In this document: in pieces, positions 4,883-55,587 of the stretch
How the letters are laid out: the number at the start of each line of letters is the position of its first letter
How positions within the stretch are numbered: position 1 is the first letter of the stretch
Assembly (NCBI GenBank): GCA_964358005.1
Contig: CAYHNH010000003.1
Coordinates: 16,334-80,333, forward strand
Reading direction: 5' to 3'
From: an uncultured Candidatus Saccharibacteria bacterium
Lineage (GTDB): Bacteria; Patescibacteriota; Minisyncoccia; Phycocordibacterales; PALSA-1337
Length of the DNA: 64,000 bases
Notes under the pieces: generated by a model
Told to the model about the DNA's origin: nothing
What the model saw: the letters and a program-made list of their open reading frames with translations, nothing else
Database searches by the model: none
Translations under genes and position numbers: made by a program

Positions 4883-5257
4883 TCACTTCTTATAAACAGG
4901 CCCATGGCCTCTGATCTTCTTGAGCAGTTCGGCAGCTTCGTCATAGAGGGACATGCCTTGGAACATCTTACTGCCAGAGGAACTACATATCTCTAATAGC
5001 TCATCTATAGCTTCTCCGGTAAAGCCGGCCTCATGGAAGACGCTAGCCTTGCGCATAGTCCACCTGATACCGGCGACGGCGGCGGCTCGTGACCCTTCAG
5101 ATTCATATATAGCATCGATCTCAGACTGCGCCTGGAGCAGCCAACGCTCATAGACCTCCCTAGAATACGGGTCGGATTCGAGCTTGGGCAGTGCCTCGAC
5201 GGCTTCTTGGTCGGTTACCTGCCAATGCTCCGGGGCTGGCCCTGATTCGCCTTTCAT
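4883..5257 (-). CDS. hypothetical protein
   Basis: Track ORF starts at TTG 5296; first ATG gives MKGESGP... at 5257. No recognised domain. Confidence 0.3.
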   Translation of the reverse strand: MKGESGPAPEHWQVTDQEAVEALPKLESDPYSREVYERWLLQAQSEIDAIYESEGSRAAAVAGIRWTMRKASVFHEAGFTGEAIDELLEICSSSGSKMFQGMSLYDEAAELLKKIRGHGPVYKK

Positions 5258-5398
5258 AGTGCAAATATAGCATAATTTCGAAAAGTTGACACTCAAACCG
5301 TTTCATGTTACTTTATTTCCATATTAGCTGTTTTGAAAATGCAAAAATGGGCCTAGAAATACGCCTATCAAACTTCAACCCAAAGAGGAGATCCCTAT

Positions 5399-6358
5399 AT
5401 GGTCAGTGTAAGACTGCGCCGTAGATACGGTTTGCCTCTCGAAGGCGAAACCGGTCTCGATGCCCATCATGAAAGATTACTTTGTCATCTAGACGCCCGT
5501 CATACGGTCGAGGAAATGAGAGAGCTGGTCGCACAGTTTGAAGGGTTTAGATCGCTCGTTATGGCCGTTGATCAGTCGAATGGCAAGTCTGGAGTCCCAG
5601 CGTTAAGGCCTCAGGTGACGTCTGTCCAGAACGAGCAGCTCAATGGTCACTCCCACCGGATCGATGACTCCTATGTGCGCGAGAAATACAAACTGCCTCC
5701 TTCGGGGCCGTTAAGTCTGAATCGGGAGAGGATCGATAAGCTGATCTATTTGGAGCGAAACATCCAAGCTTACCAAAACGACCCCAAGATGGCCGGAGCG
5801 ATCAGAGACTGGCGTCAATTGATGCGGGGTATTCTGGCAGAACAGCGTTTCGTATCTGCCTGGACACACGATAATTTTTGTCAGCCCGGTGTAAAACTAG
5901 TCAGAGGAGCGACACTCCGTGAAGACACGGTCGACAAGGCTGATGCCATTATGGAACTTGTCGATGGCAGAATTTGGAAATTCCAGGTGAAGACTGGCCG
6001 TCAGGGCAGTTTTGAGGAGTTTGCCAGAATTGGGGTAGTGCTGGTTAGAACCAAGTATGATTATACTCCCGTCCAGATTCGGGCTGCCGCCATACGGGCC
6101 ATGTTTGATTATCTTGAGTTCAAGAAGAGCCTGATCCCGCTACCACTATATCTCGATGATGCCGAAACCGGAATCAAGATCGAACTTTCGTGGGCAGCAT
6201 TACAGCCGCAGTTTCGTAACCTGCCGCTATCTGATGTTTCCTTTGCCCACTTGAACGCACGCGCCCAGGAGGTCGTCCGATCCTACGGCAAGGCTACCCT
6301 TGCCTGCCAAGTCACAACGCCGCATGGAGCTACCCAGGTCATCCACGCCCCGAAATAG
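5399..6358 (+). CDS. hypothetical protein (319 aa)
   Basis: Long ORF with protein-like composition, divergent from the 4883-5257 gene; no recognised domain. Confidence 0.4.
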   Translation: MVSVRLRRRYGLPLEGETGLDAHHERLLCHLDARHTVEEMRELVAQFEGFRSLVMAVDQSNGKSGVPALRPQVTSVQNEQLNGHSHRIDDSYVREKYKLPPSGPLSLNRERIDKLIYLERNIQAYQNDPKMAGAIRDWRQLMRGILAEQRFVSAWTHDNFCQPGVKLVRGATLREDTVDKADAIMELVDGRIWKFQVKTGRQGSFEEFARIGVVLVRTKYDYTPVQIRAAAIRAMFDYLEFKKSLIPLPLYLDDAETGIKIELSWAALQPQFRNLPLSDVSFAHLNARAQEVVRSYGKATLACQVTTPHGATQVIHAPK

Positions 6359-43844: not shown

Positions 43845-44408
43845 ATGGATTCATACAAGGATAAGATCTTGGGCTTCTACTCATCACGCAAGCGCATGCC
43901 GAGCTATGCGGAGATTATGAAGCTAGTGGGCTTCAAGTCAAAGAATGCCGTCTACAAGCTCATAGAGAATCTGGTGGAGCAGGGCGTAGTGATCAAGGAT
44001 GCCACTGGCCGTCTCATACCGACCAAGCTTATGGATGAAGTCCCTCTCCTCGGCCTCGTGGAAGCAGGATTTCCTTCGGAAGCAGATGCACAGACGCTCG
44101 ATACCATAGACGTCAATGAATATCTCTTCGAACACAAGGAGTCATCGTATCTATTGCGCGTGAAAGGCGACTCCATGATCGAGGCTGGCATACATGAGGG
44201 CGATATGGTCATAGCGGAACGCGGCCGCGCTGCCAAGCCGGGTGACATAGTCATAGCGTGCGTGGATGGGGCCTGGACCATGAAATATCTGCGCACAAAA
44301 GCCGGCAAGAATTACCTCGAGCCAGCCAATAAGAGGTATAAGCCTATCTATCCCGAGACGGCATTGGAAATAGCGGCTGTGGTGAAGGGTGTGGTGAGGA
44401 AGTATTGA
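43845..44408 (+). CDS. lexA: LexA repressor (S24 peptidase)
   Basis: N-terminal LexA-type winged HTH (MPSYAEIMKLVGFKSKNAVYKLIENLVEQGVV); cleavage-site/peptidase segment VKGDSMIEAGIHEGDMVIAERG with the catalytic Ser in GDSM and the catalytic Lys. Confidence 0.85.
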   Translation: MDSYKDKILGFYSSRKRMPSYAEIMKLVGFKSKNAVYKLIENLVEQGVVIKDATGRLIPTKLMDEVPLLGLVEAGFPSEADAQTLDTIDVNEYLFEHKESSYLLRVKGDSMIEAGIHEGDMVIAERGRAAKPGDIVIACVDGAWTMKYLRTKAGKNYLEPANKRYKPIYPETALEIAAVVKGVVRKY

Positions 44409-44501: not shown

Positions 44502-45791
44502 ATGATCTACATAGGTACCCCCGTAGCCATGAAGGAGCTCCTTCATGGCACCAGTTGCTATATAACCGAGGTGACGATCACCTCTCGCGATTCGAACAAG
44601 TTCAGTGGCCGCCTCACGCTAGAGGACAGCTCTACTGCCAGCGACGAGAGCCATATCTGGATGGCGACCTACGCTCAAGGGACTGGTTGGATGGTTACAG
44701 GGGACGGCGTCAAGCTGTCCAATGGCGAACGAATCAGATCTACAAAAACCTACCCGTTCTCCCTCAAGTCTGCTATCAATGATGGCGTGAGGGGATTCCT
44801 CTCCGAGTGGTTGGCCAAGAACAGGAGCATTATCCACGAGCGCAAAGGGCCGGAAGCGGCAGAAACGCCTGCTCCGCCCCCGCCTCCTCCAGCTCCATCA
44901 AGCAACGGCTCGTCGCCCAAGGGCATCGAGATCGTCGAGGTCCTGCTCGCTGAGGTCATCCCGTTCGAGGGCCAACCTCGGTTAGAGTGGTCGGAATCCG
45001 ATCATCTCGACATGGTCAATGGCTTGAAGCAGGACGGCCAGAAGCAGCTCATAATCGTCACTCCCATCACCGGTATTCCAGGCAAGCGCTGGAAGCTCGT
45101 GGATGGAGAGCGGCGTTTCCGCGGCGGCCTCGCTGCAGGAAAGCAGAAGATGTTCGCCATTGTCCGGCGCTACGCTTCTGAAAAGGAGATGTTCTGGGAC
45201 TCTCTGACGATGAACATGCATCGCCGCGGGCACACTCCTTACGAATGTGTGCGCGATATCGGCAGGGCCATGCGCGACGGCAAGACGGTGCAGGAGATCT
45301 GCATCGGCACCGGGCTCTCCGACTGTGCGGTCTACCAATTCCTCCAGATGCAAAGGCTCGAGCCGTCGCTCTTGGAGCTACTGCGTCTGTCTGTCCCGAA
45401 GAAGGACCGACTGAGCGTGGAGTCTGCCAAGAAGCTCTCCCGTGTGCCTGACCAGAAGGAGCAGCTGCGCATCTGGGGCATCGCCAAGAAGGAGAGCACC
45501 CCGAGCCTTCGGAAGCTCAAGGTGGATGAGCTGACTGCGCCGATACTGCATAGCCTCCCGGTAAAAGGTCGCGTCCGCAAGCCTAGCGATAATGCGGTTC
45601 GGCTGTTGAGGGTCCTACAGAACCTCGAGGCTGGCGTCGCGTTCATCGAGAGGGCTACGGATGCCGATCTCAGGGCCTTTGCGACCTGCGCAAGGTCGAC
45701 GACGGTCAATACCAGCGACCTCCTGAAGCGGTTGAATGTTGCAACGAGAGGCTGGAACTCATTCAGGGACAAGGTGGTCAAGGTGGCTTGA
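44502..45791 (+). CDS. ParB/Srx-like N-terminal (nuclease) domain protein, 429 aa, G+C-rich
   Basis: Central ParB-N motif LIIVTPITGIPGKRWKLVDGERRFRG; unknown N-terminal 150 aa and a Pro-rich linker (PAPPPPPPAPSS); GGGAGGAG RBS 7 nt upstream of the ATG; 94 bp downstream of lexA. Confidence 0.55.
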   Translation: MIYIGTPVAMKELLHGTSCYITEVTITSRDSNKFSGRLTLEDSSTASDESHIWMATYAQGTGWMVTGDGVKLSNGERIRSTKTYPFSLKSAINDGVRGFLSEWLAKNRSIIHERKGPEAAETPAPPPPPPAPSSNGSSPKGIEIVEVLLAEVIPFEGQPRLEWSESDHLDMVNGLKQDGQKQLIIVTPITGIPGKRWKLVDGERRFRGGLAAGKQKMFAIVRRYASEKEMFWDSLTMNMHRRGHTPYECVRDIGRAMRDGKTVQEICIGTGLSDCAVYQFLQMQRLEPSLLELLRLSVPKKDRLSVESAKKLSRVPDQKEQLRIWGIAKKESTPSLRKLKVDELTAPILHSLPVKGRVRKPSDNAVRLLRVLQNLEAGVAFIERATDADLRAFATCARSTTVNTSDLLKRLNVATRGWNSFRDKVVKVA

Positions 45792-46759: not shown

Positions 46760-47365
46760 ATGCCAACTGAATTAACAGCAATTTTTGGAGTTCTATCTGG
46801 AATCGCAGTCCTAATCGGTGGCATCCCATATCTCCGAGACATTCACCTAAATAGAGCACAGCCTCATATATTGAGCTGGTTGGGCTGGACCTTTATCACT
46901 GCTCTCGGTGCCAGCGCGATGCAGGCTGAAGGCAGCACTTGGGTGGTCGGAATACTGTGGGCGAATGCGCTCAATTCCTTCCTGATAGCGGCGTACTCGG
47001 CTATTAAGAAAACTGGTGTCTGGTCGACTGGTATCTATGATTATATTTTTTTCGGGCTAGGCGTCATGGGACTAGTCCTGTGGCAGGTTTTGGATATGCC
47101 TGTCCTGGCGATTATCTGTGCCATTGCAGCTGACTTGTCGTTTGGCATTCCGACGATCATAAAATCATACAAGAATCCGGGATCAGAAACATTCTTTGTG
47201 TGGCTAATGTCCTCTGTTTCTGGTTTTCTTAGCTTGCTTGCTATCCAGCAATTCGTTTTCCATGAGGTGGCATATCCACTATATTTGTTTATTTATGACA
47301 CTATAGTCATGCTACTAGTATTGAAAATAATTCACAGACCAGGCCGTGGTCTCGTTCAGAAATAA
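46760..47365 (+). CDS. polytopic membrane protein (6 predicted helices), low-G+C
   Basis: 201 aa, highly hydrophobic (IFGVLSGIAVLIGGIPYL; VVGILWANALNSFLIAAYSAI; ...); no family recognised. Confidence 0.45.
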   Translation: MPTELTAIFGVLSGIAVLIGGIPYLRDIHLNRAQPHILSWLGWTFITALGASAMQAEGSTWVVGILWANALNSFLIAAYSAIKKTGVWSTGIYDYIFFGLGVMGLVLWQVLDMPVLAIICAIAADLSFGIPTIIKSYKNPGSETFFVWLMSSVSGFLSLLAIQQFVFHEVAYPLYLFIYDTIVMLLVLKIIHRPGRGLVQK

Positions 47366-47369
47366 TTTC

Positions 47370-48683
47370 ATGCCTGACATCGACCTATACAACAAATCTC
47401 CCGAATCATACGATGATCTCCAACACATGCGCCCGGACTATGTCGGTGCGCAAAAGGCGTTTATAGATCTGGCGGTACAACATTTGAACGGCAAACAGAA
47501 TATCTCTGTCGCTGATTTCTGCTGCGGCACAGGTCAAGACACCAAAACGCTCGCCGGACATGTGAAGATTGATAAGGCCACGCTCATAGACATAAACAAG
47601 GACTTTTTGAGAATTGCTAAGGAGAAGGACATTGGAGTTCACAATATCGTGACGATTTGCTCTGACATTCTGGAGGCTGACGTGTCAGCGAATAATGATC
47701 TAGTCATCTCGATGTTCGCCTATCACCATGTTCCAAATAATAGGAAGGCTGATTATCTAAAGAAGGCGAAGGAGGCTCTTAAGCCTGGCGGCCTGCTTCT
47801 TCTAGGTGAGATATTCATGCAGAGTAAGGCGGATACGTTGAAGTACTATGAGGATTTGATCGCTTCGATTCCCGGATCGAAGGATAATCCTGCTTTGGTC
47901 AGTTTTCTAAGGCAGACTGCGCAAAGCGATGATTTTGAATTTAAAGTCTCCAAGGAGTATGCCTACAATCAACTAAAAGAGGCAGGTTTTTCTCTGGTTG
48001 AGTCGAAAAAGATATGGCCCCTCGATGGCAGTTTGTCGGCTGATGATGGGACATTTGTGGAGGTTTGGAAATCAAATATTACGAAATTGTTTCTAACATC
48101 TGCAGGTTTTACTAACTCTGAAACTACAGATATTTTGATGGAAGAGATCCCAAAGCAGGCCGAATTGTGTAAGGTTTTGATGATTAGCTGCACCCAGGAT
48201 GAGACTGAGGAATCCTATGTGAATGAGTCCAAGAATGAGCTTCGATCACTCGGTTTCAAGGACATAAAGGTTCTTGATCTGCACAAACCGATGAAGCCTG
48301 ATCCTGCCGACATTGTGTATGTCTGTGGCGGCAATACTTTTGCGATCCTGCAGAAAATGAAAGAAACGGGTGTCGATAAATTTATAATTGATTCAGTGAA
48401 TAAGGGTGCCTTGTACATAGGCGTTTCCGCGGGAAGCATTATGGCTGGCAAGACCATCGAGATTGCCGGATGGGGCTCGACCGGAGACAAGAATGAGGTC
48501 GGCCTCAAGGATCTCACTGGCTTCGGTTTTACTGACGTAGCAGTTTTTCCTCATTATCAGACTTCACAAAAAGATGAGGTCGCGGAATTCAAGAAGAGGG
48601 CCACTTATCCGGTTATTGAAATTACCGACAATCAGATGGTGTTTGTGAGGGATAATAAAGCAAAAAAGATAGGGAGATTTTAA
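47370..48683 (+). CDS. fusion protein: class I SAM-dependent methyltransferase (N-terminal) plus peptidase S51/dipeptidase-E-like domain (C-terminal)
   Basis: N-terminal VADFCCGTGQDTKTLAGH (motif I) ...LLLGEIFMQS; C-terminal IVYVCGGNTFAILQKMKETG...IGVSAGSIMAG (GGNTF plus nucleophile-elbow serine typical of the S51 family). Start at ATG 47370 (track start is GTG 47346). Confidence 0.5.
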   Translation: MPDIDLYNKSPESYDDLQHMRPDYVGAQKAFIDLAVQHLNGKQNISVADFCCGTGQDTKTLAGHVKIDKATLIDINKDFLRIAKEKDIGVHNIVTICSDILEADVSANNDLVISMFAYHHVPNNRKADYLKKAKEALKPGGLLLLGEIFMQSKADTLKYYEDLIASIPGSKDNPALVSFLRQTAQSDDFEFKVSKEYAYNQLKEAGFSLVESKKIWPLDGSLSADDGTFVEVWKSNITKLFLTSAGFTNSETTDILMEEIPKQAELCKVLMISCTQDETEESYVNESKNELRSLGFKDIKVLDLHKPMKPDPADIVYVCGGNTFAILQKMKETGVDKFIIDSVNKGALYIGVSAGSIMAGKTIEIAGWGSTGDKNEVGLKDLTGFGFTDVAVFPHYQTSQKDEVAEFKKRATYPVIEITDNQMVFVRDNKAKKIGRF

Positions 48684-49251: not shown

Positions 49252-49263
49252 AGCATAATTTTC

Positions 49264-49950
49264 ATGGAAAATATAAAAGAAGACGGAACAATTAATAAAG
49301 AAAGGAAAGTGCCTTGTTCAGAATGTGCATCCAAAACTTATCACAAGGTCTTAAAATCGATTAATTATCTTGAATCTGGGGACTGGGGAATTACATGGGG
49401 TAATTATGAAATAATTATATGTCAGGGATGTAGATATATTTCCTTTAGAAAAGTTTTAGGGACTGATGATGTAATTGGACAAGATGAGGAGGGAAATTTC
49501 ATATACGAGGAGGAAGAGGAGTTGTTCCCTCCAAGATTGAGTGGAAGGAAAGAGCTTGAGGATAATAGGTTTTTGCCCTTGGATGTCGGAAGAGTATATC
49601 GTGAGACCTATCGTGCTATTAATGGCGAACAACCGATTCTCGCCGGAATGGGAATCAGGGCGTTGGTTGAAGCTGTATGTGTTGAAGAAAAAATAAAGGG
49701 TAGAAACTTGGAGAAAAGGATTGATAACCTAGTTGAAGCTGATTTACTTACCAAGAAAGGCGCTGAAATTCTTCAGCAAATTAGGCTTTATGGTAATGAT
49801 GCGGCTCACGAAGCAAAAGCGGCAAAGATTGAGGATCTGGGGGTCCTAATGGATATAGCCGAAAACCTTCTACACAATACATACCTACTTAAGATAGGGG
49901 TAGCAAAGCTAGAAAAAGTAAAAAGTAAGCCTAAAGAGGCTAAGAAATAG
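49264..49950 (+). CDS. DUF4145-domain protein with N-terminal Cys4 zinc-ribbon-like region
   Basis: CSEC...CQGC N-terminal pairs; C-terminal DUF4145 signature (KRIDNLVEADLLTKKGAEILQQIRLYGNDAAHEAKAAKIEDLGVLMDIAENLL). Confidence 0.5.
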   Translation: MENIKEDGTINKERKVPCSECASKTYHKVLKSINYLESGDWGITWGNYEIIICQGCRYISFRKVLGTDDVIGQDEEGNFIYEEEEELFPPRLSGRKELEDNRFLPLDVGRVYRETYRAINGEQPILAGMGIRALVEAVCVEEKIKGRNLEKRIDNLVEADLLTKKGAEILQQIRLYGNDAAHEAKAAKIEDLGVLMDIAENLLHNTYLLKIGVAKLEKVKSKPKEAKK

Positions 49951-49999
49951 AACCCTGGTTTGCCTGGTATTGACTTTAAAATTAGGCTACAATTAGTCT

Positions 50000-50602
50000 A
50001 TGGACATACAGAGGGCACAGCAAGCAGCTTTGTATTTTGCATCTAGCGTAAGCGATCTATATCTGGTTAAGCTTATGAAGCTTTTCTATTATCTAGATTT
50101 CATTTCTGTAAGAGAGACAGGTAAATCTGTCACAAATGATACTTATTTTCATTTGCCATACGGACCAATACCGAGCTTTATAAAGGATAATATTGATTCT
50201 CTAGATTCTGGTATTAAGGCGGAGGAGGTAAAAATACTTGATCCAAATCAAACCGGTACCCCGGTGTGGTTAAAGATTTCTAGTATATTTGACGGGGTTC
50301 TCGAGTTAAACACTAGGGGGAAAGGTAAAATTGCCAAAGTGGTTAATGGTCAGGCTTTTGATAGTAATAAAATTTCTGAATATGAAAAGAATCTCTTGGC
50401 CGATATTGTCAGAGATCTTGGAAATAAAACAGTGCAGGAAATTGTTAATATGACGCACTCTGAACCACCTTATGCACAAACCTCACCTAGTCAGGCAATT
50501 CCATATGATCTTGCATTTCAATTAGATGTAAGGCAGATATTGCCAAGTAGGACTGTAGTTTTCGATAAGGAAATTGCCTTCTCAAGATTTGTTTCATCCT
50601 AA
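50000..50602 (+). CDS. Panacea (DUF4065/SocA-like) domain protein, candidate type II antitoxin
   Basis: KLMKLFYYLDFISVRETGKSVTNDTYFHLPYGPIPSF matches the DUF4065/Panacea core (KLqKLLYyaDf....G..itg..y.a...GPV). Confidence 0.6.
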   Translation: MDIQRAQQAALYFASSVSDLYLVKLMKLFYYLDFISVRETGKSVTNDTYFHLPYGPIPSFIKDNIDSLDSGIKAEEVKILDPNQTGTPVWLKISSIFDGVLELNTRGKGKIAKVVNGQAFDSNKISEYEKNLLADIVRDLGNKTVQEIVNMTHSEPPYAQTSPSQAIPYDLAFQLDVRQILPSRTVVFDKEIAFSRFVSS

Positions 50603-50608
50603 TATGTT

Positions 50609-51058
50609 ATGCCTCCAGTAAAGTTTGGTGAAATTTATTTTAAAAGAGGCCAACTCAAAAACAAGCTTAGTGGATCTTCCGATGGTCACTACGTGGTTGT
50701 GCTAGGAGTCGATACAAAAGCAAACTCAATTTTGTATCAGACTCTGGAATCGGGCCTTAATAAAGTATTTTTATATCCAAACTCGCCCAAGGCCCCGTTC
50801 ATTGATGTTGATACAGTTTCCTTTATTAACTATAGAAAATATTTAAATTTATTACATAAAGACACATGTATTATGATGCATTATGGAGTAGATACAGAGT
50901 CCTTGCCAGTGTTTCTATCTCCTAAATATGTTAAGAAGGGTATATTGAGTGATCATAATAAAAAAGCATTAATGATTAGTATAATTCCGGCTAGAGGATA
51001 TAGATTATCTGTACAAGAGTCATTACTGATAAATTATGCTTACCAAAATTATAAATGA
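50609..51058 (+). CDS. candidate toxin partner of the Panacea-domain gene (possible PemK/MazF-like fold)
   Basis: Starts 7 nt after the Panacea gene stop. N-terminal GEIYFKRGQL...DGHYVVVLGVD resembles the G(D/E)I(W/Y).V.....G.E....RP.vVv pattern of PemK/MazF/CcdB-fold toxins; weak. Confidence 0.35.
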   Translation: MPPVKFGEIYFKRGQLKNKLSGSSDGHYVVVLGVDTKANSILYQTLESGLNKVFLYPNSPKAPFIDVDTVSFINYRKYLNLLHKDTCIMMHYGVDTESLPVFLSPKYVKKGILSDHNKKALMISIIPARGYRLSVQESLLINYAYQNYK

Positions 51059-51070
51059 TGTTTTAAGGCC

Positions 51071-51652
51071 ATGAACAATAAACTTATTGGTACTATCATT
51101 ATAGTCGCCATTGCATTGATTGGGGCATATTATATTGGCCAAAATTCAAAGGGTCCTGTTCAGGAGCCTCTTCCTATTAAGACTGAAGCGAATTATATTG
51201 TGCCGACTCCAGTTGCCAAAAAAAATCCCGCCAATCAATCCGCTAAGACGAGTATTGAGTTATCGGAGAACCCAGAGTATTTGTTTAGTAAGAATTTTGA
51301 TCCCAGCCTTGTAAAGGTGTATGGAGTAGGAGTTGGAGATTATCAGAGTAAAATCGACCCTTCATCAGTTGTAGAAGGCGTGGAATATTTTGGTTGGATT
51401 CATACTACAAATAAAATTGGATATCGAATTGCCGACAATAAAGTTGTGGAGATTTCATTAAACAGTTCTGTGCTCGCCCGGATGGGTATTTTTCGTCAGG
51501 ATGAGATTATTATTAGATTTGGTAAGCCAGATCAGACCAACGAGTCTGGAAATTCACCATACAAGACATTTAAATACTACTATATCAATAAAGGCTTGGT
51601 TGTTTCCTACTACGAAACTGGTGGTTTGGCGGTAAATATAATTGATAATTAA
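51071..51652 (+). CDS. hypothetical N-terminally membrane-anchored protein
   Basis: TM helix LIGTIIIVAIALIGAYYI then a 165-aa soluble domain; low G+C. Confidence 0.35.
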   Translation: MNNKLIGTIIIVAIALIGAYYIGQNSKGPVQEPLPIKTEANYIVPTPVAKKNPANQSAKTSIELSENPEYLFSKNFDPSLVKVYGVGVGDYQSKIDPSSVVEGVEYFGWIHTTNKIGYRIADNKVVEISLNSSVLARMGIFRQDEIIIRFGKPDQTNESGNSPYKTFKYYYINKGLVVSYYETGGLAVNIIDN

Positions 51653-51663
51653 TTTTAAAATAT

Positions 51664-51906
51664 ATGCCAACCCCACAAGTGCTGAACTTGCTCGGTTTAA
51701 TACTAAATACGGCTGCTGCCATCGTATTAATTGTTCCAAATCTTAGCCCAACAAAGAGTTTAAATGATGATCAGGTCATTTCTGGAAAACCAGGGTCACC
51801 AGAGTATATTCAGGTTAAGGACTTAAAGGAAAGCTGTATAAATAAAATAGGACTAATTCTATTAGCCTTGGGATTTATCTTACAGATAATATCTATCTTC
51901 TATTAA
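51664..51906 (+). CDS. small two-TM membrane protein (80 aa)
   Basis: VLNLLGLILNTAAAIVLIV and IGLILLALGFILQIISIFY hydrophobic helices. Confidence 0.3.
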   Translation: MPTPQVLNLLGLILNTAAAIVLIVPNLSPTKSLNDDQVISGKPGSPEYIQVKDLKESCINKIGLILLALGFILQIISIFY

Positions 51907-51960
51907 GTGCGTGCACGCCGTTAGATTTTAGTGTTTTGTGAAAAGGCGTATACTGTTTGC

Positions 51961-53181: not shown

Positions 53182-53598
53182 ATGAAACAAGTACTTGCTA
53201 GGGTGTATCACAACAGAAACATAGACACGGGCGCTCTCATCATCCGCCTCGCCATCGGTATCATATTCGTATCAGCCGCCTGGATGAAGATGTCCGACAT
53301 GACCGCGACCGTCGGATTCTTCGCTCAGATGGGCTTCTCGGCTTCGCAGGCGTATCTCGTAGCCTGGGTCGAGATGATCGGCGGCGTGCTGCTCATCCTC
53401 GGATTGTTCATCAAACCGGCCTCGGTAGCTCTCGCAGTCATCATGGCAGTCGTTGTCTGGGGTACTCCCGGCAGTAAGTATGACGTATTCTTCGGGCATA
53501 ACTACCAGTTCATCCTCTTGGTCACTCTCATCGCCCTGTACTTCATAGGCGCTGGCAGATTCTCGGCCCTATTCCTCCGAAAGAAAGGCTCGAACTAG
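53182..53598 (+). CDS. DoxX-family membrane protein
   Basis: Four hydrophobic helices; IIRLAIGIIFVSAAWMKM and VEMIGGVLLILG match DoxX. Confidence 0.65.
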   Translation: MKQVLARVYHNRNIDTGALIIRLAIGIIFVSAAWMKMSDMTATVGFFAQMGFSASQAYLVAWVEMIGGVLLILGLFIKPASVALAVIMAVVVWGTPGSKYDVFFGHNYQFILLVTLIALYFIGAGRFSALFLRKKGSN

Positions 53599-54498
53599 TT
53601 TTTCCGCTTCGGCATTCTCGCCGGGCCTGAACCACCTGATGGCCGTATTCTTGCGCCACCAGGTTTTTTGGCGTCGGGCATATTGCCAGATCTTCGTTGT
53701 GAGGGTCACCTGGAGCTCCTCGAGGGTGAGGTTGTTCTGCAGATATTCAGCCAGGTATCTATATTCGAGGCCGAGCTCCTTCATGCGGGCATAGCTTAGG
53801 CTGTATCCCTCGGGACCTGGGGCATGGAGCTTGTGGGCCTCTTCTATCATGCCGCCCTGCAGACGTGCGGAGAGGCGGTTCACGATCCTTGTCCGTATCT
53901 CATCGTCGGCCGGCATAATGCCGATCATGAGCGGGTCGTATTTGGCGTGCGATACCAACATGGGGACTTGCCCGAGATTTTGGGCGATGAGAAGGGCACG
54001 AATGACGCGGCGCTTATTGCTATAGCTTCCGTTCGACTTCATCTCCTCGGCGCGGCGTGGATCGAGGAAGTGGAGCTCCTTGTAGAGGGCCTCTAGGGGC
54101 TGTAGTTCCAGGGATTGCTGGACCTCATGGTCGGTCTCGATTTCAGGTAATTTTGTGTCGTTGATCAGCGCATCGATATAGAAACCAGTGCCACCGCAAA
54201 TGATAGGCAGTCTTCGGCGATGGAGGATGTCCGCTACGGCATCTTCGGCGAGGTGCTTCCATTGGGAAACGGTGTATCTCTCGTGGGGATCGGCGATGCT
54301 TAGTCCATAGTGCTTGACTCCTTTTGTCTCTGTTGGGGTTATCTTGCCGGTGCCTATGTCGAGACCCTTGTAGACCTGGCGCGAGTCAGCGGATATGACT
54401 TCGCCATCGAATTTGAGGGCCAGCTCCACAGCCAGGTCGCTCTTACCTGAGGCTGTCGGGCCAACTACTACGAGGATCTTGGGTCTCTCTGTTTTCAT
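53569..54498 (-). CDS. miaA: tRNA dimethylallyltransferase
   Basis: ILVVVGPTASGKSDLAVELA P-loop and ISADSRQVYKGLDIGTGK motif; start at ATG 54498 (MKTERPK...), 4 nt from the tRNA-Leu 3' end. The longer track ORF runs through the tRNA. Confidence 0.85.
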   Translation of the reverse strand: MKTERPKILVVVGPTASGKSDLAVELALKFDGEVISADSRQVYKGLDIGTGKITPTETKGVKHYGLSIADPHERYTVSQWKHLAEDAVADILHRRRLPIICGGTGFYIDALINDTKLPEIETDHEVQQSLELQPLEALYKELHFLDPRRAEEMKSNGSYSNKRRVIRALLIAQNLGQVPMLVSHAKYDPLMIGIMPADDEIRTRIVNRLSARLQGGMIEEAHKLHAPGPEGYSLSYARMKELGLEYRYLAEYLQNNLTLEELQVTLTTKIWQYARRQKTWWRKNTAIRWFRPGENAEAEKLVRAFLSEE

Positions 54499-54502
54499 TC
54501 TG

Positions 54503-54584
54503 TGCCGGGAGGGAGAATCGAACTCCCATGGATTACTCCGCACGATTTTGAGTCGTGTGCGTCTACCAATTCCGCCATCCCGGC
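54503..54584 (-). tRNA. tRNA-Leu (anticodon CAA), long variable arm
   Basis: Acceptor GCCGGGA/TCCCGGC, anticodon stem-loop CACGA-CTCAAAA-TCGTG, long variable arm, T-loop TTCGATT; 82 nt. Confidence 0.85.
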
Positions 54585-54627
54585 TTGTGTGGCAAAGTCT
54601 ACAATATTTTTGTGTTAAAATACATCC

Positions 54628-55587
54628 ATGTCTACCGGCTACGTAAATAACGCTGTCTTCTGGGTGGAGATCGAAAAGATCGCGCCCAACCCGTACCAGC
54701 CGCGCCGTGAATTCGATGTCGACAAATTGCGTGACCTCGCTGACTCCATAAAGATGTACGGGGTGTTGCAGCCCCTTACTGTGAGCCGCAAAGAGGTATA
54801 TCGCGCGGACGGTGGCATGAATGTCGAGTATGAGCTCATCTCCGGTGAGCGTCGTTTGCGCGCTTCGAAGCTCGCCGGCCTGTCGCAGGTGCCTGTGCTC
54901 ATCAGAACTGGCGAGGATGATGGCCGGGTCAAGCTCGAACTCGCCATCATCGAGAATCTCCAACGCGAGGATCTAAACCCGATCGACCGAGCACGCTCGT
55001 TTGAGCGTTTGGCTAAGGAATTTAAACTCAAGCAGATCGAGATTGCCGAGAAGGTCGGCAAAAGCAGGGAGTATGTCTCCAATTCTGTCCGCATTCTTTC
55101 ATTGCCTGATGAGATGATCACTGCTCTCGAGGAAGGTAAGATATCCGAGGGACATACGAGACCCCTCCTCATGCTCATCGACCGGCCGGAGGAGCAGATC
55201 GTCCTATTCAAGGAGATCATGATGAAGAAGCTCACAGTGCGTGAAGCAGAGTCGTTGTCGCGCCGGGTAGCAACGGAGAAGATACGCAACAAAACGAAAT
55301 ATCTCGATCCGGCTATCATTGAAATGGAAAAGAACTTTACGGAATCGCTTGGCACACGAGTCCGTATCGAAAAGAACAAGGAAGGAGGCACTGTGACGAT
55401 CGACTTCTTCAGCCCTGATGACCTGCGGGCGCTGCTCGAGAAGCTCAATAAGACTGAGGCAGTGGTAGCGGCCATGCCGGCAGTCGCAGTTAGCGAAGAC
55501 CAAAAGCCCATGGATGACCGAGCGCCTGCGGATGTAGTCAAGGAAGACAATACGGAGCTGTATTCTCTGAAGAATTTTTCACTGTAA
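54628..55587 (+). CDS. parB: chromosome partitioning protein ParB/Spo0J
   Basis: ParB-N box (YELISGERRLRASKLAGLSQVPVLIR), HTH and C-terminal dimerisation region; no parA adjacent in this window. Confidence 0.85.
   Translation: MSTGYVNNAVFWVEIEKIAPNPYQPRREFDVDKLRDLADSIKMYGVLQPLTVSRKEVYRADGGMNVEYELISGERRLRASKLAGLSQVPVLIRTGEDDGRVKLELAIIENLQREDLNPIDRARSFERLAKEFKLKQIEIAEKVGKSREYVSNSVRILSLPDEMITALEEGKISEGHTRPLLMLIDRPEEQIVLFKEIMMKKLTVREAESLSRRVATEKIRNKTKYLDPAIIEMEKNFTESLGTRVRIEKNKEGGTVTIDFFSPDDLRALLEKLNKTEAVVAAMPAVAVSEDQKPMDDRAPADVVKEDNTELYSLKNFSL

Follow-up and report, generated by a model that had tools for sequence, protein, structure and literature searches.

A Panacea gene and a rare downstream gene with a predicted MazF-like fold: a probable toxin–antitoxin cassette beside a RAZR-type candidate in a Patescibacteria genome

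Do three adjacent genes in a low-G+C islet on a Patescibacteria contig belong to one toxin–antitoxin (TA) or defence module, and what does the last of them, a small open reading frame (ORF) without an assigned family, encode? The window analysed here is the whole 64,000-nucleotide (nt) stretch of contig CAYHNH010000003.1, from an uncultured Candidatus Saccharibacteria bacterium. An earlier reading made from the letters alone (the sequence-only reading) had grouped a DUF4145 gene, a Panacea (DUF4065) antitoxin-like gene and a tightly coupled downstream ORF into a single candidate module, and had guessed that the third product might be a new PanT toxin with a fold like that of PemK, MazF and CcdB. 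The results presented below point to a smaller unit. Positions 49965-51058 are probably a self-contained bicistronic PanA-PanT cassette of type II, with its own promoter and with a toxin that would act as an endoribonuclease, and the DUF4145 gene is a separate candidate. The ORF listing places the three ORFs where they had been reported, all on the + strand, and the motifs quoted for the last two, KLMKLFYYLDF...YFHLPYGPIP and FGEIY...GHYVVVL, are present in the translations. The toxin ORF does start 7 nt past the last base of the Panacea stop codon, which leaves a spacer of 6 nt. The elements discussed are as follows.

49264-49950, + strand: DUF4145 gene, 228 amino acids (aa), a single-gene RAZR/PD-T7-4-like defence candidate
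49965-49997, + strand: conserved non-coding upstream block, TGGTATTGACTTTAAAATTAGGCTACAATTAGT, abutting the PanA start; putative promoter
50000-50602, + strand: PanA, 200 aa, putative antitoxin (Panacea/DUF4065/SocA-like)
50603-50608, + strand: 6-nt spacer from the PanA stop to the toxin ATG
50609-51058, + strand: PanT candidate, 149 aa, member of a rare, previously unrecognized sequence family

The Panacea assignment of the 50000-50602 product was found to be sound, as the protein matches SocA_Panacea (PF13274) in Pfam with an E-value of 6.8e-16 and 59.6 bits (cut-off 25.7). The Panacea domain covers residues 25-158, and past it lies a conserved C-terminal extension of ~40 aa (AFQLD..ILPSR..FDKEIAFSRF). 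A total of 23 PanA homologues were found, with conservation of both the core and the C-terminal tail. The proportion of nonsynonymous differences (pN) in PanA is 0.11-0.14, compared to a proportion of synonymous differences (pS) of ~0.83.

No family of Pfam, PADLOC, NCBIfam or PHROGs matched the 149-aa product. A word-indexed search of 5.8 billion proteins recovered eight relatives with 55-76% identity, and an exhaustive search of 1.84 billion cluster representatives with an HMMER profile gave 18 matches, all of this type; one of these, P0024, is repetitive and was excluded from the alignment. Conserved positions in 24 sequences are G7, H27, L32, Q44, S48, K52, F54, D66, D68, K77, Y78, and T86. 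Against its relatives the toxin gene shows a pN of 0.17-0.23 and a pS of 0.90-0.99 (saturated), and the low pN alongside saturated synonymous sites indicates purifying selection. The ORF is a real, rare gene. Its family splits into a short subgroup of ~145 aa and a long subgroup of 162-175 aa, the latter carrying an insert of ~25 residues which contains a CxxC motif. In P0015-P0023 and P0025 this insert (columns 62-90 of alignment A2) lies past helix 50-55, usually with the CxxC and often with a nearby His, and may form a small knuckle that binds metal. In a search from the close alignment, the sole species-representative genome with the family was a Candidatus Taylorbacteria metagenome-assembled genome (MAG), and the two toxin-family loci which could be assigned taxonomically are both from Patescibacteria. 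No relative of the toxin was found by tblastn in 50,697 phage records, nor in a scan of viral contigs.

Further analysis addressed the neighbourhood of the pair. Loci were reached from toxin homologues as well as from Panacea homologues, and 10 distinct loci were examined. In every one of them an ORF recognized by the hidden Markov model of the toxin family directly follows the Panacea gene, with a gap of 1-7 nt, while identities across the loci are ~41-83% for PanA and ~25-74% for the toxin. The check that had been proposed on the neighbours of the Panacea gene therefore came out in favour of the pair, with the same ORF family always beside it in related and distant genomes. The flanks differ: rarA lies downstream in the window and in three close relatives, DNA ligase (ligA) and gatCA are found in locus L008, an N6/N4 methyltransferase and a ResIII helicase in L010, and other methyltransferases in L012. 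Moreover, the identities of PanA and of the toxin correlate across 21 locus pairs, which are not independent (r 0.94). From this co-variation it follows that the two proteins diverged together, without swapping of partners.

Gene calling and assembly affect how some of these loci appear. In L008/L009 the toxin homologue (5627-6088) has a GTG start codon 5 nt past PanA and was missed by gene callers or cut to 70 aa; automated neighbourhood surveys would therefore misscore this PanA as an orphan. In L001 (ENA contig_53267) a frameshift splits PanA, and many other genes on the same contig, those for a tRNA synthetase and RarA among them, are likewise split. As several housekeeping genes are affected, the split in PanA is probably a long-read assembly error.

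A 30-nt block, TGGTATTGACTTTAAAATTnAGnTACAATT, lies directly upstream of the PanA start and is conserved in the window, L002, L007, and L001, whereas the sequence further upstream is unrelated among these four loci. It contains the hexamers TTGACT and TACAAT (-10), the second of which ends 8 nt before the PanA ATG. The spacing between the two is 12 nt, which is atypical for sigma-70, and a scan for consensus promoters and terminators inside the module returned nothing above shuffled expectation and did not call the block. Its conservation and position suggest that it may be the cassette's own promoter, giving a near-leaderless mRNA. Across the 6-nt spacer, translation of PanA and of the toxin would be coupled.

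The nature of the toxin candidate was approached through structure prediction. With the 24-sequence alignment, AlphaFold gave a model with a predicted local distance difference test score (pLDDT) of 84.5 and a predicted template modelling score (pTM) of 0.79. This confident model was obtained only after remote members from the exhaustive profile search had joined the alignment. It comprises a β-barrel and then two C-terminal helices; the sole disordered stretch is the loop 17-24, which is taken to sit at the flexible β1-β2 loop of MazF. A Foldseek search of the PDB matched Staphylococcus aureus MazF (E 1.4e-5, probability 1.0, template modelling score 0.65-0.72 on the target), and the top entries among viral models were annotated as 'PemK-like protein'. 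The early guess of a PanT with a PemK/MazF/CcdB-like fold thus agrees with the predicted structure, which corresponds to a MazF/CcdB toxin fold rather than to a housekeeping fold. Because the fold matches and the sequence link is not significant, the model places the 149-aa protein within the MazF/CcdB fold but outside the PemK sequence family of Pfam.

A residue register was derived with hhalign by comparing the toxin family with a small MazF/Kid alignment. Four members of the latter were entered by hand, and as a profile it matches the MazF, EndoA, and Kid entries of the PDB with E-values of 1e-40 to 1e-51. In this register FGEIY of the toxin is aligned with GDLIW and H27 with the catalytic R29 of E. 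coli MazF; E47/S48 stand opposite T52/T53, and D68 opposite D76, the position of the catalytic D75 in Kid. The invariant S48 aligns at or beside the MazF Thr, in an alignment of low confidence. We infer that the near-invariant H27 may correspond to the MazF Arg (R29 in E. coli MazF), S48 to the Thr (T52/T53), and the near-invariant D68 to D75 of Kid. One further locus bears on this fold. In L002 a Pfam-positive PemK_toxin gene (4981-5496, - strand) lies ~540 nt upstream of PanA on the opposite strand, and L002 would therefore have a canonical MazF-fold toxin as well as one from the new family.

How does the pair compare to known systems? Kurata et al. (2022, PNAS) recognized PanAT pairs by a Panacea gene with a partner within 100 nt, occurrence in at least two species and no conserved longer operon (PMC8832971). 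All four of these in-silico features are seen in the window pair, which occurs at 10 loci with unrelated flanks and neighbours that are not conserved. In that work antitoxin-first was the commoner gene order, PanA and PanT formed direct complexes in pull-downs, and two of the validated PanTs, from Pseudomonas moraviensis and Bifidobacterium ruminantium, had no CDD match, were EndoA/PemK/MazF-like by HHpred and inhibited translation (PMC8832971). The window pair resembles these two systems in having the Panacea antitoxin first and a small toxin directly downstream, in the lack of a standard domain match for the toxin (CDD in their case, Pfam here) together with a MazF-like predicted structure, and in being a two-gene unit conserved across species. 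It differs in that its toxin forms a separate sequence family, with 18 representatives. Since pairs of PanA with a MazF-like PanT were validated in 2022, the window pair adds one more example, distinct in sequence, to a kind already known.

Compared to MazF itself, the window toxin is ~40 aa longer, with one additional helix following β3 and a second helix at the C-terminus. Its partner is different as well. MazE and PemI, the antitoxins of MazF and PemK, are of the AbrB or ribbon-helix-helix type, whereas here the partner is a Panacea protein. In the proposed mechanism, PanA would bind the toxin directly and keep it inactive, as expected for type II. Loss or titration of PanA would free the toxin, which would then act as a sequence-specific endoribonuclease, cleaving RNA and stopping translation. 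Its fold would be that of MazF, Kid, and CcdB, in a sequence too diverged for PemK models to recognize.

Several results weigh against this reading. Not one of the 24 family members has a Pfam match at E<=5, PemK (PF02452) included, the family profile matched no PDB sequence, and hhalign assigned the comparison with the MazF/Kid alignment a probability of only 4.3%, so that by sequence the toxin stands apart from MazF/PemK/Kid proteins such as S. aureus MazF (4mzm). The fold assignment depends on a single predicted model, and with nine close homologues only, AlphaFold reached a pLDDT of 34. At the position of the catalytic Arg of MazF the family has a near-invariant His (H27), replaced by Tyr in one member. 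The alignment behind the residue mapping is of low confidence, and the register may be shifted by one position. Because four of the ten loci belong to close relatives with shared synteny, the independent observations of pairing are fewer than ten. PanA has no recognizable DNA-binding domain, which leaves autoregulation without an account. Finally, about half of all Panacea proteins lie outside TA-like loci (PMC8832971).

The pair might accordingly be a conserved operon of another kind, in which the SH3-like barrel has a non-toxic role in nucleic-acid or protein binding and the Panacea partner serves some other function. This is judged improbable. A PanA-PanT module with a CcdB-like toxin, poisoning DNA gyrase instead of cleaving RNA, is decidedly improbable. 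The model does share the SH3-like barrel and C-terminal helix of the MazF/CcdB fold, but CcdB ranks below all MazF matches and no conserved C-terminal tail was recognized in the family; moreover, the conserved His/Ser/Asp pattern suggests a nuclease, unlike CcdB. PanA could also be a proteolytic adaptor that hands the toxin over to a protease, in the manner of SocA and SocB (type VI), with no sequestration. The Pfam family is named after SocA, PanA has no DNA-binding domain, and PanA is better conserved than the toxin (83% vs 74%), in contrast to many labile antitoxins of type II systems. SocB, however, belongs to another class of toxin. In the work of Kurata et al., every PanAT pair tested gave stable complexes, which fits type II (PMC8832971). 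An adaptor role is therefore given very little weight.

A further proposal keeps the pair and changes the chemistry. The 149-aa protein would found a distinct, mainly Patescibacteria-like branch of the MazF/CcdB fold, with an active site rebuilt on His27/Ser48/Asp66/Asp68 and a target or chemistry unlike that of MazF, for example one particular tRNA or rRNA as target, or an activity other than that of a nuclease. In the PanA clade, the conserved C-terminal tail would then be the toxin-binding element, and the CxxC insert of the sister subgroup could add metal or nucleic-acid binding. This proposal is speculative and judged unlikely, though it deserves some weight. The type II cassette with an endoribonuclease toxin remains the best explanation of the pair.

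What, then, of the DUF4145 gene? The 49264-49950 product matches DUF4145 (PF13643) in Pfam with an E-value of 4.1e-19 and 68.9 bits (cut-off 23.1). It also matches the PADLOC PD-T7-4 model PDLC04109 (E 2.7e-7, profile positions 14-157 of 211) and, over its full length, phrog_1305 of PHROGs (E 1.2e-28). The zinc-ribbon N-terminus that had been noted in the translation is present as two CxxC motifs at residues 18 and 53 (C18, C21, C53, and C56), and the C-terminal DUF4145 HEPN domain carries R174-x3-N178-x3-H182 (R-x7-H). All seven residues are invariant in 14 homologues with 35-68% identity. An identical protein is found in NCBI, from a 'Patescibacteria group bacterium' MAG. No relative was detected by tblastn in the 50,697 phage records, and there was no match among the sequences of solved structures.

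PD-T7-4 corresponds to RAZR, a ring-activated zinc-finger RNase which works as a single-gene abortive-infection system (Nature 2026, PMC13017515). RAZR combines a Cys4 zinc ribbon at its N-terminus with a C-terminal DUF4145 HEPN domain, in which R146 and H154 are essential, and is activated by assembly around phage portal-like rings (PMC13017515). The window protein shares the Cys4 zinc ribbon, the linker, the C-terminal DUF4145 HEPN domain, and the Arg and His 8 residues apart (R174/H182, compared to R146/H154 in E. coli RAZR), and like RAZR it is a single gene. It differs in being a distant, Patescibacteria-derived and longer protein (228 aa) with an acidic linker insert.

A three-component defence system of DUF4145, PanA, and the 149-aa ORF would explain why the genes lie side by side in one orientation, with 49 nt between DUF4145 and PanA, and have a common low G+C content. 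However, no DUF4145 gene lies upstream of PanA in any of the eight other PanA-toxin loci for which that sequence is available (the L003 and L004 contigs start inside PanA and are uninformative). Conversely, neither PanA nor the toxin gene is found near three DUF4145 homologues with 53-68% identity, one of which is from a Nomurabacteria assembly; these homologues occupy unrelated contexts with no conserved partner. The conserved promoter block starts just 35 nt before PanA, and RAZR functions as one gene (PMC13017515). A system of three components is thus barely credible, and the earlier grouping into a three-gene module does not hold. Since DUF4145 is absent at other pairs and stands alone elsewhere, the supposed module is two adjacent independent elements. 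The DUF4145 gene is a separate single-gene candidate for a RAZR/PD-T7-4-type abortive-infection RNase, as far as its domains and residues indicate.

One recurrent context was seen among the RAZR-like homologues. Two of the three, at L014 4001-4693 and L015 4001-4678, lie 3-4 nt past gyrA and are followed by an ASCH-domain gene. The two come from different genomes, one of them Candidatus Nomurabacteria, and this arrangement is unlike the context in the window.

These results would add a rare toxin family, invisible to sequence methods and with 18 representatives among 1.84 billion clustered proteins, to the toxins predicted to be neutralized by the promiscuous Panacea domain. They also suggest that orphan partners can be assigned by fold prediction once a modestly diverse alignment has been built. 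A probable PanAT cassette and a RAZR-type RNase candidate are found side by side in a reduced genome of the Patescibacteria (candidate phyla radiation, CPR), a group in which defence and addiction modules are little studied and whose hosts are not culturable for direct tests. The apparent Arg-to-His change raises a concrete question on the flexibility of the MazF active site. The gain is incremental, as this kind of system has already been described and validated.

The surrounding islet of low G+C content is confirmed, and it extends slightly beyond the block first reported. It spans 49252-51920 (2.7 kb) with 36.8% G+C, compared to 51.8% for the window, and the G+C content at third codon positions (GC3) is 0.28-0.35 in five consecutive islet genes vs 0.75 and 0.69 in the flanking genes for a His phosphatase and RarA. 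Beyond the three ORFs reported earlier it includes two more.

51071-51652, + strand: islet passenger ORF, 193 aa, with a hydrophobic N-terminal segment, IGTIIIVAIALIGAYYI; GC3 0.345
51664-51906, + strand: islet passenger ORF, 80 aa, with two hydrophobic stretches; GC3 0.333

The hydrophobic stretches of both passenger ORFs were judged by eye to be transmembrane. Neither product matched a family in Pfam, PADLOC or NCBIfam, neither has a homologue in any related locus, and the 51071-51652 product had no match in PHROGs either. Both ORFs are outside the TA pair. Together, the islet genes make up a small, variable stretch of low G+C content located upstream of rarA. Boundaries of a mobile element were sought, and no tRNA adjoins the islet. 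The repeats found there are weak AT-rich direct or inverted repeats, the best of which (I1) is 31 nt at 71%, and they are regarded as chance.

Recent horizontal arrival of the pair was considered and rejected. In the syntenic close relatives the protein identities are 80-87% for RarA, 76-83% for PanA, and 66-76% for the toxin, and the DNA identities are likewise similar for rarA and the pair. The pair therefore seems to have been at this locus since the common ancestor, with its low G+C content retained. In every locus but L002, where the values are equal, the G+C content of the pair is below that of the rest of its contig. The pair seems to be a long-standing resident of this variable spot, and the distant loci indicate mobility over longer times.

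Other features of the window were also recorded. A fusion of a methyltransferase (S-adenosylmethionine-dependent, SAM) and a peptidase S51 is encoded upstream of the PanAT pair at 47346-48683, and in two relatives (L007 4273-5046 and L001 10344-10949) homologues of this fusion protein are encoded on the downstream side of the pair. As these homologues change side, the lexA-rarA region has been rearranged among close relatives. Next to a LexA-like gene (43845-44408), a 429-aa protein (44502-45791) has a ParB_N domain (E 1e-9) past a proline-rich linker. It differs from the chromosomal ParB at 54628-55587 and may be a ParB/Srx-type nuclease or an NTPase of a mobile or defence element. Finally, a tRNA-Leu(CAA) gene (54502-54584, - strand) lies inside a listed ORF of 464 aa (53569-54963), from which it follows that the true miaA gene is shorter than this ORF.

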